In this document: positions 15,989 through 19,857 of the stretch, piece after piece
How positions within the stretch are numbered: position 1 is the first letter of the stretch
Layout: each line of letters starts with the position of its first letter
Source: Escherichia coli
Lineage (GTDB): Bacteria; Pseudomonadota; Gammaproteobacteria; Enterobacterales; Enterobacteriaceae
Reading direction: 5' to 3' (one strand)
NCBI RefSeq assembly: GCF_003790525.1
Contig: NZ_CP033635.1
Length of the DNA stretch: 64,000 nucleotides
Notes under the pieces: generated by a model
Databases searched by the model: none
What the model saw: only the letters and a program-made list of their open reading frames with translations
Told to the model about the DNA's origin: nothing
Program-made: the position numbers and the translations under genes

Positions 15989-16545
15989 TGACGGGAAAAC
16001 TGATTTGGTTAATGGGGGCCTCTGGCTCCGGAAAAGACAGTCTGTTGACGGAACTCCGCCAGCGGGAACAAACTCAGCTACTGGTAGCGCATCGCTACAT
16101 CACGCGCGCCGCCAGCGCCGGAAGTGAAAACCATATCGCCCTGAGCGAGCAGGAGTTTTTTACCCGCGCGGGGCAGAACCTTCTGGCCTTAAGCTGGCAC
16201 GCTAACGGTCTGTATTATGGCGTCGGCGTCGAGATTGACCTCTGGCTGCACGCTGGATTTGACGTGGTGGTCAACGGCTCACGCGCCCATCTGCCGCAGG
16301 CGCGGGCGCGCTATCAATCGGCGCTGCTGCCCGTTTGTTTACAGGTTTCGCCAGAGATCCTGCGCCAGCGCCTGGAAAACCGTGGTCGTGAAAATGCCAG
16401 TGAAATTAACGCCCGGCTGGCGCGCGCTGCCCGCTATACTCCTCAGGATTGTCTTACGCTCAATAATGACGGCAGCCTGCGCCAGTCGGTCGACAAGCTG
16501 CTGACGCTGATTCATCAGAAGGAGAAACACCATGCCTGCTTGTGA
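15988..16545 (+). CDS. phnN: Ribose 1,5-bisphosphate phosphokinase PhnN, 185 aa
   Basis: ORF track; P-loop GASGSGKDS. Confidence 0.93.
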
Positions 16546-16966
16546 GCTTCGCCCGGCTACGCAGTACGACACCGACGCAGTTTACGCGCTGATTTGTGAG
16601 CTAAAACAGGCGGAGTTTGACCACCACGCGTTTCGCGTGGGGTTTAACGCCAATCTGCGCGATCCGAACATGCGCTACCATCTGGCGCTGCTGGATGGCG
16701 AAGTTGTCGGCATGATCGGCCTGCATTTGCAGTTTCATCTGCATCATGTCAACTGGATCGGCGAAATTCAGGAACTGGTGGTGATGCCGCAGGCGCGCGG
16801 TCTGAATGTCGGCAGCAAATTACTGGCATGGGCAGAAGAAGAAGCCCGCCAGGCCGGGGCCGAAATGACTGAGCTTTCCACCAACGTGAAGCGCCACGAC
16901 GCGCACCGTTTCTATCTGCGCGAAGGCTACGAGCAGAGCCACTTCCGCTTCACCAAGGCGCTGTAA
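16532..16966 (+). CDS. phnO: Aminoalkylphosphonate N-acetyltransferase PhnO (GNAT), 144 aa
   Basis: ORF track; GNAT fold; overlaps phnN 3' end. Confidence 0.93.
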
Positions 16967-16967
16967 C

Positions 16968-17726
16968 ATGAGCCTGACCCTCACGCTCACCGGCACCGGC
17001 GGCGCACAGGGCGTTCCGGCATGGGGCTGCGAGTGCGCGGCCTGCGCCAGAGCACGACGCTCGCCGCAGTATCGCCGCCAGCCATGCAGCGGCGTAGTAA
17101 AGTTTAACGACGCAATCACCCTGATCGACGCCGGGCTGCACGATCTCGCCGATCGCTGGTCGCCAGGATCGTTCCAGCAGTTTTTGCTGACGCATTATCA
17201 TATGGATCACGTCCAGGGGCTGTTTCCGCTGCGCTGGGGCGTGGGCGATCAGATCCCGGTCTACGGCCCGCCGGATGAACAGGGCTGCGACGATCTGTTT
17301 AAACATCCGGGCCTGCTTGATTTCAGCCACACGATGGAACCGTTTGTGGTGTTTGATTTACAAGGGTTACAGGTCACGCCCCTGCCGCTCAACCACTCAA
17401 AACTGACCTTCGGTTATCTGCTGGAAACGGCACACAGCCGGGTGGCGTGGCTGTCTGACACCGCTGGCTTGCCGGAAAAAACGCTGAAATTTTTACGCAA
17501 TAATCAGCCGCAGGTAATGGTGATTGATTGCAGCCACCCGCCGCGCGAGGATGCACCGCGTAATCACTGTGATTTAAATACCGTGCTTGCGCTGAATCAG
17601 GTTATCCGCTCGCCACGGGTGATTCTGACCCATATCAACCACCAGTTTGATGCGTGGCTGATGGAAAACGCACTGCCGTCGGGGTTTGAGGCGGGGTTTG
17701 ATGGGATGGAGATTGGGGTGGCGTGA
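16968..17726 (+). CDS. phnP: Phosphoribosyl 1,2-cyclic phosphate phosphodiesterase PhnP (MBL fold), 252 aa
   Basis: ORF track; metallo-beta-lactamase motif HYHMDH; last gene of phn operon. Confidence 0.93.
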
Positions 17727-17760
17727 TGGGTGAGGGGCGATGCCTGCTCTAAACTCAACA

Positions 17761-18090
17761 TCAACGCCCATACTCATCTTCCATTCTCCGCTCTTCATCT
17801 TCTAGCTGCCGACGCTCCTGATCCAGCTGGCGCTGGCGATCGTCCAGCTGCCTGCGGCGATCTTCAAACTGGCGGCGGCGATCGTCATATTGTCTGCGCC
17901 GATCGTCGTTCACTTCACGCTGCCAGCCGTCGTCGCGCGAATCTTCATAGTCTCGCCCACGGTCAGGGTTATAAGCGGCGTTAATCGCCTGCTGAATATT
18001 GCCAATGGTGTCATCGATAATATCGGCCTGGGCCGGAACGGTGGACAGCGTGAACAGGGTGAATAAAAGAAATAGCGGAAAGCGTTTCAT
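17761..18090 (-). CDS. yjdP: Secreted charged repeat protein YjdP, 109 aa
   Basis: ORF track; signal peptide MKRFPLFLLFTLFTLSTVPAQA; Arg/Gln/Asp/Glu-rich repeats (RRRQYDD, RRRQFED, RRRQLDD). Confidence 0.85.
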   Translation of the reverse strand: MKRFPLFLLFTLFTLSTVPAQADIIDDTIGNIQQAINAAYNPDRGRDYEDSRDDGWQREVNDDRRRQYDDRRRQFEDRRRQLDDRQRQLDQERRQLEDEERRMEDEYGR

Positions 18091-18158
18091 TAGCCAACCT
18101 CAAAAAGAAACTCTATCCACATTAGTCATTACTCATCCATGCAAGTAGTGGATGAATC

Positions 18159-18608
18159 TCAATTTCTCCGCTGCTCTATTGCCGTAATCGCCTCCACGCG
18201 TTGTTGATGACGACCGCCTTCGTACTGTGCGCCCAGCCACGCATCGACAATCATTTTTGCCAGTTCGAGGCCAACCACTCGTGAACCAAAAGCCAGCACG
18301 TTGGTATCGTTATGCTGCCGCGAAAGTTGCGCGGAATAAGGTTCGCTACAAACGACGGCGCGAATTCCGGCAAACTTGTTCGCCGCTATCGAAATACCGA
18401 CGCCAGTGCCACAAATCAAAATCCCGCCATCAGCCTCTCCGCCAGCAACGACCAGTGCGACTTGACTGGCGTAATGCGGATAATCAGTACGCTCTGACGA
18501 CCAGGTTCCTTTATCAATCACTTCAACGCCACGCTCAACTAAATGTGCCACTATTTCATGTTTTAAAATGAAACCGACATGATCACAGCCAAATGCAATC
18601 TTTTTCAT
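18159..18608 (-). CDS. rpiB: Ribose-5-phosphate / allose-6-phosphate isomerase B
   Basis: ORF track, 149 aa; RpiB/LacAB family; divergent from rpiR-als operon. Confidence 0.95.
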   Translation of the reverse strand: MKKIAFGCDHVGFILKHEIVAHLVERGVEVIDKGTWSSERTDYPHYASQVALVVAGGEADGGILICGTGVGISIAANKFAGIRAVVCSEPYSAQLSRQHNDTNVLAFGSRVVGLELAKMIVDAWLGAQYEGGRHQQRVEAITAIEQRRN

Positions 18609-18966
18609 TCATCTTCCCCGCCCGCGCAAAACTTCACAATCAAAAAACATTTGTGATGTAAATGAATTAAAAACACCCAAAATCGATGAAACCCGCCTTC
18701 CCTATCTGTTTTACAGAGTTACATCTGGCAGCGCAATAGCGTTAAAGACACTCACTATCCAGCAACATCTATCATCCAATAAACCAGAAAAACAAATAAC
18801 ATCATGTTTTTAAAGTGATTAAATGAAATGAAATTTTAAGCCACTCTCCATTATTCACAACAAAACAAACTTTATAAATTTTATTTTTTTGTGAAGTTGC
18901 CAGCATCTTTTCTGTTCTTGCTGTGGTGATATAGTGGCGTCTTCAATTCAAGGACAAGAGAACGTG

Positions 18967-19857
18967 ATGAGCCAGTCAGAGTTTGATTCAGCGCTTCCGA
19001 ACGGTATCGGGTTAGCGCCTTACCTGCGAATGAAGCAGGAAGGAATGACAGAAAACGAAAGCCGCATCGTGGAGTGGTTACTCAAACCCGGTAACCTGAG
19101 TTGTGCACCCGCAATTAAAGATGTCGCAGAAGCTCTGGCGGTATCTGAAGCGATGATCGTTAAGGTATCAAAGCTGCTGGGGTTTAGCGGCTTTCGTAAC
19201 TTACGCAGTGCGCTGGAAGATTATTTTTCTCAGTCAGAACAAGTATTGCCTTCCGAGTTGGCTTTTGATGAAGCGCCGCAGGATGTGGTGAATAAGGTAT
19301 TTAACATCACTTTACGCACCATTATGGAAGGTCAGTCGATCGTCAACGTTGATGAGATCCACCGTGCCGCCCGCTTTTTCTATCAGGCCAGACAGCGGGA
19401 TTTGTACGGTGCCGGAGGATCAAATGCTATCTGTGCTGATGTACAGCACAAGTTTTTACGCATTGGCGTACGCTGCCAGGCCTATCCGGACGCTCACATC
19501 ATGATGATGTCTGCTTCGTTGTTACAGGAAGGAGATGTGGTGCTGGTGGTGACCCATTCCGGGCGAACCAGTGATGTAAAAGCGGCTGTAGAACTGGCAA
19601 AAAAGAACGGGGCAAAGATTATTTGTATAACGCATAGCTACCATTCACCGATAGCGAAGCTGGCCGATTATATTATTTGCTCACCGGCCCCGGAAACACC
19701 GTTATTAGGTCGTAATGCCTCGGCAAGAATATTACAACTAACTTTGCTGGACGCGTTTTTTGTCTCTGTCGCCCAGCTCAACATTGAACAAGCTAATATT
19801 AATATGCAAAAAACCGGCGCAATTGTTGATTTCTTCTCACCAGGCGCGCTGAAATAA
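18967..19857 (+). CDS. rpiR: RpiR-family transcriptional repressor RpiR/AlsR, 296 aa
   Basis: ORF track 18934..19857 trimmed to MSQSEFDSALPNG start; N-terminal HTH plus SIS domain. Confidence 0.9.
   Translation: MSQSEFDSALPNGIGLAPYLRMKQEGMTENESRIVEWLLKPGNLSCAPAIKDVAEALAVSEAMIVKVSKLLGFSGFRNLRSALEDYFSQSEQVLPSELAFDEAPQDVVNKVFNITLRTIMEGQSIVNVDEIHRAARFFYQARQRDLYGAGGSNAICADVQHKFLRIGVRCQAYPDAHIMMMSASLLQEGDVVLVVTHSGRTSDVKAAVELAKKNGAKIICITHSYHSPIAKLADYIICSPAPETPLLGRNASARILQLTLLDAFFVSVAQLNIEQANINMQKTGAIVDFFSPGALK

Follow-up and report, generated by a model that had tools for sequence, protein, structure and literature searches.

Escherichia coli yjdP encodes a short protein with tandem imperfect repeats. 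We asked whether these repeats are an unstable stretch of DNA or a repeat that is maintained in the protein. The gene lies on the minus strand of a 64,000-nt stretch of the E. coli genome (hereafter, the window). An earlier note on this DNA had read the tract as a run of units of about 24 bp whose number is liable to change. Our main results are that the period is 21 bp rather than 24 bp and that the tract is best read as a conserved protein heptad, not as an unstable DNA repeat. The analysis also gave some modestly useful by-products for this uncharacterized gene: a hypothesis that the heptads form a salt-bridged helix with a single seam of leucines, an RcsB-like box upstream, and a variable 9-bp tract.

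Identity and architecture of YjdP

The name yjdP, which the earlier note had given to the gene, is correct. The locus is 100% identical to the E. coli SMS-3-5 locus that is annotated as yjdP, its neighbors are phnP and rpiB, and the annotation yjdP is found at this gene in 5404 of 5426 complete E. coli genomes. The protein matches the NCBIfam model NF041443 ("DDRRRQL repeat protein YjdP") with E = 2.4e-42 and 143.3 bits (the cutoff is 90). This is a full-length family match, as residues 1-103 of the protein align to positions 1-101 of the 101 in the model. A Pfam family for YjdP, PF28054, is precomputed on all of the homologues; our local Pfam scan gave sub-threshold noise only (Arm-DNA-bind_5 and DUF4140), and PF28054 is absent from the scanned release, which predates that model. 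The protein in the window is a member of the YjdP family (NF041443 / PF28054) and does not differ from it in kind: relative to YjdP from K-12, the SMS-3-5 allele has minor substitutions (F13, A38, and N61 instead of L, D, and S). The repeat itself is ordinary and already catalogued: NCBIfam named the protein after it, and the Pfam family also exists. Among the papers searched, we found no experiment on YjdP and none that deals with its function, and searches for DDRRRQL, b4487, and PF28054 gave nothing relevant. The names "Skp family chaperone" and "RNase H-like nuclease," which the source attached to two protein clusters, were set aside as probable low-complexity artefacts.

The coding sequence and its parts are as follows, with the basis for each in parentheses:

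17761..18090, minus strand: yjdP coding sequence, 109 aa and the stop codon (list of open reading frames; NF041443 match; yjdP annotation in complete E. coli genomes)
18025..18090, minus strand: signal peptide, aa 1-22 (inspection of the sequence; pN/pS of 0.51)
17968..18024, minus strand: conserved N-terminal mature segment (A)DIIDDxIGNIQQAINDAY, modelled as a helix (alignment A1; pN/pS of 0.19)
17908..17967, minus strand: acidic, variable, non-periodic linker, aa 42-61 (low pLDDT; varies between genera; pN/pS of 0.24)
17761..17907, minus strand: seven in-register units of 21 bp or 7 codons (lag-21 z = 6.7; AlphaFold2 helix; conservation of position 7)
17827..17907, minus strand: units 1-4, which can be recognized as a tandem repeat in the DNA itself (Tandem Repeats Finder; unit identity)

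The architecture of the family (signal peptide, ADIIDDxIGNIQQAI helix, acidic linker, and DDRRRQL heptads) is present in alignment A1 and across 59 enterobacterial species loci, and the form with seven units and 109 aa is common to Escherichia, Citrobacter, and Trabulsiella. From the N terminus, YjdP would comprise a Sec-type signal peptide, a short conserved N-terminal helix, a variable acidic linker, and the seven heptads. The N-terminal mature segment has invariant columns in alignment A1 and was found in all 59 species loci. The linker varies between genera in both length and sequence, and residues 41-53 have a pLDDT of 55-64 and no secondary structure in the AlphaFold2 model.

The earlier note described the product as secreted and highly charged. 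The charge is plain, with charged residues making up 54% of the mature protein. Secretion is a prediction from the sequence: by inspection, the N terminus has the features expected for Sec and signal peptidase I (MKR, then FPLFLLFTLFTLSTVP, then AQA followed by D) and contains no cysteine (no lipobox). We infer that YjdP is exported to the periplasm, and its signal peptide is probably cleaved.

The DNA periodicity follows from a protein heptad

A tandem imperfect repeat is indeed present, in frame and on the minus strand, within the 109-aa open reading frame at 17761..18090, but its period and extent differ from those first reported. Autocorrelation peaks at lags of 21 and 42 (0.60 and 0.56), and a lag of 24, the unit length proposed originally, is just a shoulder (0.47). 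The peptide units that had been quoted (RRRQYDD, RRRQFED, and RRRQLDD) are right, and their seven residues correspond to 21 bp. A self dot-plot had been named beforehand as a check for internal periodicity, and the periodicity is there: the lag-21 signal has z = 6.7 over codon shuffles, and none of 5000 shuffles reached it. The non-repeat half of yjdP has no lag-21 signal (z = 0.8, codon shuffles). As for the extent, the in-register array covers 17761-17907, or about 45% of the gene, not the 3' two-thirds. The span of 17765-17950 that had been assigned to the repeat takes in a stretch (17908-17950, encoding YEDSRDD GWQREVN) that is charged but has no periodicity.

The seven units read DDRRRQY DDRRRQF EDRRRQL DDRQRQL DQERRQL EDEERRM EDEYGR-stop, and the consensus heptad is D-D-R-R-R-Q-L. 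Tandem Repeats Finder reported the first four units, at 17827-17907, with a period of 21, 3.9 copies, 77% matches, and a score of 83. Pairwise DNA identity is 57-81% among units 1-4 and 33-57% between the last three units and the first four. The longest exact direct repeats in the tract are 9-10 bp.

This similarity between units is what the protein would impose on any DNA that encodes it. The observed identity at lag 21 is 0.658, as compared to 0.652±0.026 under random back-translation (p = 0.46), so the protein sequence leaves none of the DNA periodicity unexplained. Pairs of identical codons numbered 15, as compared to 11.0±2.5 expected, which is not a significant excess (p = 0.09). Very probably, the periodic DNA is a nucleotide shadow cast by a heptad in the protein and not an active DNA repeat. 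On the back-translation control, we also reject a recent duplication, or gene conversion, as the source of the DNA similarity.

The heptads are the most constrained region of yjdP and the signal peptide is the least conserved: pN/pS is 0.063 in the repeat, 0.19 in the N-terminal mature segment, 0.24 in the linker, and 0.51 in the signal peptide. In this analysis, pS was 0.62, with synonymous change nearly saturated. Across 60 sequences (the 59 species loci and the window), five of the six repeat positions have a hydrophobic residue at position 7 of the heptad in 58-60 sequences, and the sixth has one in 55. Each unit retains its own identity across the 60 sequences.

We also considered whether the open reading frame might not be a real gene at all. 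The periodicity would then belong to a non-coding repeat (a REP-like element, for instance), to an RNA gene, to GATC sites clustered for Dam and SeqA, or to an antisense open reading frame at 17730-17984. Five GATC sites do lie 21, 21, 21, and 18 bp apart (17820-17904), and the 84-aa antisense frame does overlap the tract. However, pN/pS is 0.06 with synonymous change near saturation; the signal peptide, the Shine-Dalgarno sequence, and an upstream motif are kept in 59 species; and a search of 16500-19500 against Rfam gave no matches. The GATC cluster was ruled out as a Dam/SeqA element, as there are from 1 to 7 sites per species and neither their number nor their position is conserved. A non-coding reading has almost no chance of being correct, as conservation at the level of codons all but refutes it.

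Heptad number rarely changes

The heptad tract had been described as prone to slippage and to copy-number variation. In the strong form of this idea, it would be a minisatellite whose copy number differs by strain, with rapid variation in protein length, much as at a contingency locus. Some of the data fit. Alleles that have gained or lost whole heptads encode proteins of 95, 102, or 123 aa, and 120 protein clusters include 7-aa deletions at five or more different positions, one 14-aa deletion, and one 14-aa duplication. The junctions of these deletions and duplications lie within shared GATCGCC or CGCAG strings, with exactly 21 or 42 bp lost or gained. One 102-aa protein (P0025) is encoded on two backgrounds that differ at synonymous sites, suggesting that its deletion has recurred, and another 102-aa allele (P0037) is indexed in 2561 blocks of a large assembly collection. 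Thus, the claim of copy-number variation holds in that whole units are gained and lost, albeit rarely. A 102-aa allele with one heptad deleted is present in about 16-18 of 5405 complete E. coli records, and two other heptad-deletion alleles that we examined were found in none of the complete E. coli genomes; about 99.7% of the complete records retain seven units. To judge from these samples, changes in heptad number tend to be few, old, and clonal. (Allele frequencies, here and below, are from identity-band counts and three evenly spaced samples and are not an exact census.)

The expectation of slippage fared worse. The units are diverged (33-81% identity), exact repeats do not exceed 9-10 bp, the units are no more alike as DNA than the protein dictates, and the architecture is the same across genera under a pN/pS of 0.063. 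We consider a slippage-prone minisatellite very unlikely. Instead, we propose that the array arose by an ancient internal duplication and that strong purifying selection now holds every unit separately, and it is because of this selection on each unit that the number of units would be almost fixed. Rare recombination at microhomologies of 7-10 bp would then cause whole units to be lost or duplicated in frame.

Contingency loci of the Haemophilus and Neisseria type are phase-variable simple-sequence tracts. They resemble yjdP in having tandem units in a coding region and in the occasional gain or loss of a unit. However, the heptad units of yjdP are diverged and stable. Furthermore, all of the units in yjdP (21 bp in the heptads and 9 bp in the signal peptide) are multiples of three bases, so on/off switching by frameshifts is impossible.

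What the heptads might form

AlphaFold2 models residues 54-108 as one helix with a pLDDT of 89-98 and no tertiary contacts (pTM of 0.38). In the heptad region, 69% of the residues are charged. Among charged pairs at i/i+3 and i/i+4, 36 are of opposite sign and 2 are of like sign, as compared to 21.5±3.4 and 20.2±3.4 in shuffled sequences; none of 20000 shuffles reached this excess of opposite pairs. The heptads would thus be a single continuous helix of about 55 residues in which nearly all of the charged pairs at these spacings are opposite in sign, and one hydrophobic residue per heptad (Y68, F75, L82, L89, L96, and M103) would form a narrow seam on one face. We infer that the helix acts through this conserved seam, as a surface for binding or self-association, and not as a passive spacer. 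There are reasons for caution about the helix: AlphaFold2 renders most charged repeats as long helices, a monomeric helix and an oligomer are inseparable in such a model, and aspartate is a weaker helix former than glutamate.

Two more specific structures need to be weighed against this proposal. The heptads could be a genuine coiled coil of the leucine-zipper type, in which case periplasmic YjdP would act as a homodimer or homotrimer. As in leucine zippers and tropomyosin, a leucine-like residue recurs at every seventh position, where it is conserved, and the charges at positions e and g are partly complementary. If the leucine is placed at d, then every one of the seven heptads has an acidic residue at e, and g is arginine in four and glutamate in three, which would give a parallel dimer four attractive g-e' pairs. 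The near-invariance of every position also suggests a specific interface. The best matches from a search of PDB sequences were tropomyosin (E = 0.039) and GCN4 (E = 0.58), but neither is significant, and Foldseek found no matches in PDB for the YjdP model. Coiled coils have hydrophobic residues at both a and d; in YjdP, d reads YFLLLM, but a reads RRRQREY, with arginine or glutamine in five of the seven heptads. The core would have one hydrophobic layer per heptad, with like charges juxtaposed, and the charges are already nearly all satisfied inside one helix (the 36 opposite and 2 like pairs above). We view this putative oligomer as a possibility, but a doubtful one.

The other structure is a monomeric single alpha-helix (SAH) whose only role is to hold the N-terminal helix and the C terminus apart as a stiff spacer. 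YjdP shares with SAH domains such as that of myosin-6 and the designed AEEEXXX helices (PMC5347031, PMC4183817) a 7-residue period of acidic and then basic residues, a high content of charge with dense potential for salt bridges at i/i+3 and i/i+4, and a predicted long, isolated helix; the acidic-acidic-basic-basic-basic heptad resembles the AEEEXXX designs (PMC5347031), and the charge content, the extreme excess of opposite pairs, and the lone helix in the AlphaFold2 model with its pTM of 0.38 all agree with this. However, single alpha-helices are defined as lacking a hydrophobic seam (PMC5347031), and YjdP has a conserved one. Spacers and SAH domains usually conserve their composition and not their sequence, whereas nearly every residue of the YjdP heptads is invariant, and there is nothing C-terminal of the helix to be spaced. 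YjdP also differs in being bacterial, probably periplasmic, and built from aspartate and arginine instead of glutamate and lysine; designed heptads with arginine as the only basic residue (AEEERRR) aggregated in vitro (PMC5347031). A passive SAH spacer seems rather unlikely to us. A helix that acts through its conserved seam, as proposed above, remains our preferred reading.

Upstream region and regulation

Three features lie upstream of the coding sequence:

18098..18101, minus strand: Shine-Dalgarno-like GAGG, 7 nt before the ATG (seen in the sequence; GAG is conserved in the upstream alignment)
18119..18124, minus strand: possible -10 hexamer TAATGT, 23 nt downstream of the RcsB-like box (conserved columns in an upstream alignment of 19 species)
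18148..18161, minus strand: RcsB-box-like motif TGAGATTCATCCAC, 71 nt before the ATG and overlapping the stop codon of rpiB (match to the consensus; conservation)

The consensus for the RcsB box is TN(G/A)GAN4TC(T/C)NA (PMC7913699). The motif upstream of yjdP matches 9 of the 10 specified positions of this degenerate consensus; the exception is the final A, which is C. Similar motifs have a background density of just 0.12 per kb, and yet all 59 species loci have one, at about -72 from the ATG. More precisely, 56 of the 59 loci have the match at -71 to -75, and two further loci have it at -80 or -81, independent of which gene is upstream. The candidate -10 hexamer is TAAyGT in most other genera. 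A generic sigma-70 scan called no sites and did not pick up TAATGT at 18119..18124. The two "terminator-like" sites that the promoter scan reported fall within the repeat, on the plus strand, and are artefacts that stem from its GC-rich GCGGCGATCGTC units.

In a published experiment, a LolCDE inhibitor induced yjdP by 9.5- to 10.6-fold together with Rcs-regulated genes, in a set that includes rcsA, wca, ivy, osmC, and yjbEFGH (PMC5105897). Because yjdP has the RcsB-like box and is induced by this inhibitor (PMC5105897), we suggest that it is under envelope-stress control, in which RcsB may activate its transcription. However, the induction could run through Cpx or sigma-E instead of Rcs. The conservation of the box makes envelope-stress control of yjdP directly testable. 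Ivy, YmgD, YbgS, OsmC, and YjbEF are small periplasmic proteins or lipoproteins of E. coli that are induced by envelope stress, and they appear in the same table of responses to LolCDE inhibition (PMC5105897) as yjdP, which has a signal peptide and the RcsB-like box; searches of Pfam, NCBIfam, and PDB and with Foldseek found no relation between these proteins and YjdP in sequence or fold.

A 9-bp tract in the signal peptide

Comparing gene lengths across strains was another check that had been named beforehand. Length does vary, with alleles of 112-121 aa, but it varies through a tract in the signal peptide, which the earlier note did not mention, and not through the heptads:

18040..18063, minus strand: 9-bp tract TTCACCCTG TTCACGCTG TCCACC, encoding Phe-Thr-Leu units within the signal peptide's hydrophobic core (Tandem Repeats Finder; alleles in other strains)

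In the window, Tandem Repeats Finder gave this tract a period of 9 and 2.7 copies. The element TTCACGCTG is the unit that is expanded in other E. coli: the alleles of 112, 118, and 121 aa have 2, 4, and 5 perfect units. A length of 115 aa is also found in E. coli, and together the alleles of 112, 115, 118, and 121 aa, which make up the common length polymorphism of yjdP, account for about 7% of genomes. The 118-aa allele is matched at 99% identity or more by 395 records. We compared the genetic background of the 112-, 118-, and 121-aa loci, and over about 1 kb they are identical apart from the copy number. The genomes with these alleles include strains that are labelled ST131.

These data raise the possibility that the variable element of interest in yjdP is the 9-bp tract. 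In one lineage of E. coli (including the ST131-labelled strains), it would have become a perfect microsatellite in which slippage continues, over a range of 2 to 5 perfect units. The hydrophobic core (F4-V18 in the window) would lengthen from about 15 to about 27 residues, which could block cleavage of the signal peptide and anchor the RcsB-induced helix in the inner membrane. We think that this scenario is improbable as a whole, although if it is true, then an envelope-stress protein would undergo a heritable and reversible change of location, from soluble in the periplasm to anchored in the inner membrane. The expanded 9-bp tract of other strains does have the near-identical units and long exact repeats that the heptad tract lacks, and like contingency loci, the 9-bp tract shows behavior of the hypermutable type within one clone.

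The repeat of yjdP and its period

The 3' part of yjdP does contain a significant tandem repeat, as judged by Tandem Repeats Finder, autocorrelation, and codon shuffles. Tandem Repeats Finder reported an array at 17827-17907 (period 21, 3.9 copies, 77% matches). When this 3' part was autocorrelated with itself, peaks appeared at lags of 21 (0.60) and 42 (0.56), while the value at lag 24 was only 0.47. None of 5,000 codon shuffles reached the observed value at lag 21 (z = 6.7); by the same measure, the 5' half of yjdP had no lag-21 signal (z = 0.8). The peptides quoted in the earlier note are right, but its unit length of about 24 bp is not: the units are 21 bp. The repeat had also been said to fill the 3' two-thirds of the gene. 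The array of seven in-register heptads covers about 45% of yjdP, and the two heptad-lengths preceding it (17908-17949) are charged and not periodic.

Features of the yjdP locus (window coordinates)
16968..17726, plus strand: phnP, one neighbor of yjdP
17761..18090, minus strand: yjdP, 109 amino acids, from the ORF list
18159..18608, minus strand: rpiB, the other neighbor
17907-17887, minus strand: unit 1, DDRRRQY
17886-17866, minus strand: unit 2, DDRRRQF
17865-17845, minus strand: unit 3, EDRRRQL
17844-17824, minus strand: unit 4, DDRQRQL
17823-17803, minus strand: unit 5, DQERRQL
17802-17782, minus strand: unit 6, EDEERRM
17781-17761, minus strand: unit 7, EDEYGR and the stop codon

YjdP matches the NCBIfam family NF041443, "DDRRRQL repeat protein YjdP" (E-value of 2.4e-42 and 143.3 bits; the curated cutoff is 90 bits). 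Of 5426 complete E. coli genomes, 5404 have the same yjdP annotation beneath the match, and Pfam PF28054 (YjdP) has been precomputed on all YjdP homologues. Thus, both the gene and its repeat had already been catalogued, and the family takes its name from the repeat; the earlier observation was a correct but mis-measured view of a known protein repeat. Positions 17727-18158 are 100% identical to E. coli SMS-3-5 (NC_010498).

DNA periodicity follows from the protein

We back-translated residues 62-108 5,000 times with the codon usage of 28 long ORFs from the window. The observed identity at lag 21 was 0.658, as compared to 0.652 ± 0.026 expected from the protein (p = 0.46), so the protein periodicity fully accounts for the DNA periodicity of the array. 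At equivalent positions with the same residue, 15 of 25 codons were identical (11.0 ± 2.5 expected; p = 0.09). This control gave no sign of recent duplication or gene conversion among the heptad units. Similarity at the DNA level is confined to units 1-4 (57-81% identity); units 5-7 share 33-57% identity with units 1-4. The longest exact direct repeats are 9 bp (lag 21), 10 bp (lag 42), and 8 bp (lag 63), which are poor substrates for slippage. With such diverged units and short exact repeats, the array is unlikely to be the slippage-prone tract that had been proposed.

We considered three other readings of the array. Codon-level conservation, together with the lack of any Rfam match at the yjdP locus, led us to reject the readings that the ORF is not a gene or that the array is a non-coding repeat. 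We also rejected a contingency locus, given that the units have diverged from one another, keep the reading frame, and are stable. Finally, the array contains five GATC sites (plus-strand starts at 17820, 17838, 17859, 17880, and 17901), with spacings within 17820-17904 of 21, 21, 21, and 18 bp, as might be found in a Dam/SeqA element. However, the number of sites varies across species, from 1 to 7, as do their positions, which rules this out. The sites arise from GAT-CGN (Asp-Arg) codon pairs, or GAT-CAG (Asp-Gln) in unit 5, and are probably a by-product.

Gain and loss of heptads are real but rare

Among the 120 best protein clusters, the commonest length is 109 amino acids (56 clusters), followed by 102 (34 clusters). 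Alignment to the 109-residue reference identified exact 7-residue deletions at five or six separate places, one 14-residue deletion (95 amino acids), one 14-residue duplication (123 amino acids, in E. albertii), and a few indels of 1-5 residues. At the heptad junctions, exactly 21 or 42 bp of DNA was lost or gained; the junctions sit in strings that are shared between units, GA(A/C)GATCGCC or CGCAG; and one 102-residue protein (cluster P0025) was found on two distinct synonymous backgrounds. Hence, unit-wise gain and loss is real. It is also rare: with the commonest 102-residue allele as the query, just 16 of 5405 complete E. coli records matched at 99% identity or above, and another 2 at 95-99%. 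The P0025-type allele and the 95-residue allele had no counterpart in complete genomes, where their best matches were 330-nt genes. We also sampled the rankings three times at even intervals (40, 60, and 60 rows), and there the only heptad variant was the query's own allele. So the expected copy-number variation exists but is not frequent, and the length of the heptad tract hardly varies across strains, the outcome that the earlier note had itself listed against its reading. Its interpretation held up for the protein but largely not for instability.

Length polymorphism in the signal peptide

The common length polymorphism of yjdP resides in the signal peptide rather than in the heptads. Several sampled records have yjdP genes of 339, 348, 357, or 366 bp, and the additional codons fall within the signal peptide's hydrophobic core.

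18063-18040, minus strand: 9-bp tract TTC ACC CTG TTC ACG CTG TCC ACC (F T L F T L S T), also a period-9 array in Tandem Repeats Finder

The alleles of 112, 118, and 121 amino acids contain 2, 4, and 5 perfect TTCACGCTG units, respectively; a 348-nt gene corresponds to 115 amino acids. Three loci with expanded tracts (L001, 304-660; L002, 301-666; L003, 304-642) have no mismatches over about 1 kb and differ only in copy number, so these changes are recent. Among complete genomes, 395 records (7.3%) match the 118-residue allele at 99% identity or above. All 60 of the matches listed for this allele are perfect 357-nt genes, and they include strains labelled O25b:H4-ST131. Expanded alleles account for 14 of 160 spread-sampled rows. 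A mismatch breaks the tract in K-12 (CTC, Leu13) and in the window (TCC, Ser16).

Conservation of YjdP

Searching a single genome for each species, we recovered 59 yjdP loci, from Escherichia, Citrobacter, Trabulsiella, Raoultella, Kluyvera, Kosakonia, Phytobacter, Pluralibacter, Pseudocitrobacter, Klebsiella grimontii, and further Enterobacteriaceae. The family is small: of 1.84 billion representative proteins, only 53 reached E ≤ 0.001 in an exhaustive profile search, and many of these cover just part of the profile. In all members, the heptads are preceded, in this order, by a signal peptide, the segment ADIIDDxIGNIQQAINDAY, and an acidic linker that varies. The core RQLEDRRRQLDDRQRQLDQERRQL is nearly invariant in the alignment and in 60 sequences.

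Residue at heptad position 7 in 60 sequences, anchored on the leucine of unit 4
Repeat 1: Y in 58/60
Repeat 2: L, F, or I in 58/60
Repeat 3: L in 58/60, Y in 2/60
Repeat 4: L in 60/60
Repeat 5: L in 59/60, I in 1/60
Repeat 6: L, M, or F in 60/60

Each heptad unit evolves as a separate orthologous position. The repeat is also the most constrained region of YjdP: between the window and 15 other 330-nt yjdP genes from other species, pN/pS was 0.063 in the repeat (pS = 0.62), versus 0.19 for the N-terminal helix, 0.24 for the linker, and 0.51 for the signal peptide.

Predicted structure

An AlphaFold2 model of YjdP, built with an alignment of 18 sequences, has a helix at residues 54-108 (pLDDT by block of 89, 97, 98, 96, and 85; pTM = 0.38), an unstructured linker at residues 41-53, and a lower-confidence helix across the signal peptide and the ADIID segment. 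Within the repeat, 36 i/i+3,i+4 pairs have opposite charges and only 2 have like charges; shuffles gave 21.5 ± 3.4 and 20.2 ± 3.4, and none of 20,000 reached the observed excess. Such an excess is the defining signature of charged single alpha-helices (PMC5347031). However, their definition demands the absence of a hydrophobic seam (PMC5347031), and YjdP has a conserved one. A coiled coil fits only in part: with leucine at d, all seven heptads have an acidic residue at e, and g is Arg in four and Glu in three, but a reads RRRQREY, so the classical two-position core is absent. From the charge pairs, the conserved seam, and the missing core, the best-supported reading of the model is that the repeat would form a salt-bridge-stabilized helix with a single hydrophobic stripe. 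The near-invariance of almost every position suggests that the stripe is a surface for specific binding or weak self-association. Searching the PDB by sequence gave only non-significant matches, to tropomyosin and GCN4, and Foldseek found no match for the model in the PDB.

A predicted RcsB site upstream of yjdP

Across 19 species, the 160 nt before the start codon could be aligned in three elements only: a TTGAGATTCCTCCGCTAC block, a TAAyGT block 23 nt downstream of it, and the ribosome-binding site.

18148-18161, minus strand: RcsB-box-like motif TGAGATTCATCCAC, overlapping the rpiB stop codon
18119-18124, minus strand: TAATGT, the conserved TAAyGT block

The RcsB homodimer box is TN(G/A)GAN4TC(T/C)NA (PMC7913699), and the yjdP motif agrees with it at 9 of the 10 positions that it specifies. 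All 59 loci have a match to T.[GA]GA....TC[TC] in the 150 nt that precede yjdP; the match lies at -71 to -75 in 56 loci and at -80 or -81 in another two. The background density of the pattern in these loci is 0.12 per kb. The motif lies about 72 nt upstream of yjdP irrespective of the upstream gene. It is consistent with published data on the induction of yjdP, whose RNA rises 9.5- to 10.6-fold upon LolCDE inhibition, in the same table as rcsA, wca genes, ivy, osmC, and yjbEFGH (PMC5105897). We infer that yjdP may be an envelope-stress gene that is activated by RcsB. This conserved box and the signal-peptide microsatellite are the only items that seem worth following up.

Variation around yjdP

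The phnP-yjdP spacer (17727-17760) is 34 bp in the window strain versus 146 bp in K-12 (L006, 188-333). K-12 and many further strains have extra DNA there, which is why many alignments begin at query position 32-35; one paper lists this DNA as a hairpin/G-quadruplex element between yjdP and phnP (PMC5100583). In E. coli O157:H7 TB21-1 (L004, 330-943), a hybrid histidine kinase from the OI167 island (PMC10128022) replaces rpiB upstream of yjdP. The signal peptide also starts differently there (MKRHSTLF...), so the island ends either right at the 5' end of yjdP or within it. In E. coli FLI21 (L005, 1-760), an IS1-family insertion leaves only the first 53 codons of yjdP, and the annotation calls the gene a pseudogene; its loss thus seems to be tolerated.

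A record titled "Chryseobacterium sp. 18061" (L018, CACSKA010000007.1) contains a yjdP that is typical of enterobacteria and is preceded by the same motif; the record is probably mislabelled or contaminated. One source names two YjdP clusters (P0003 and P0037) "predicted RNase H-like nuclease (RuvC/YqgF family)" and "Skp family chaperone for outer membrane proteins," names that automatic annotation most likely assigned in error because of low-complexity or coiled-coil sequence.
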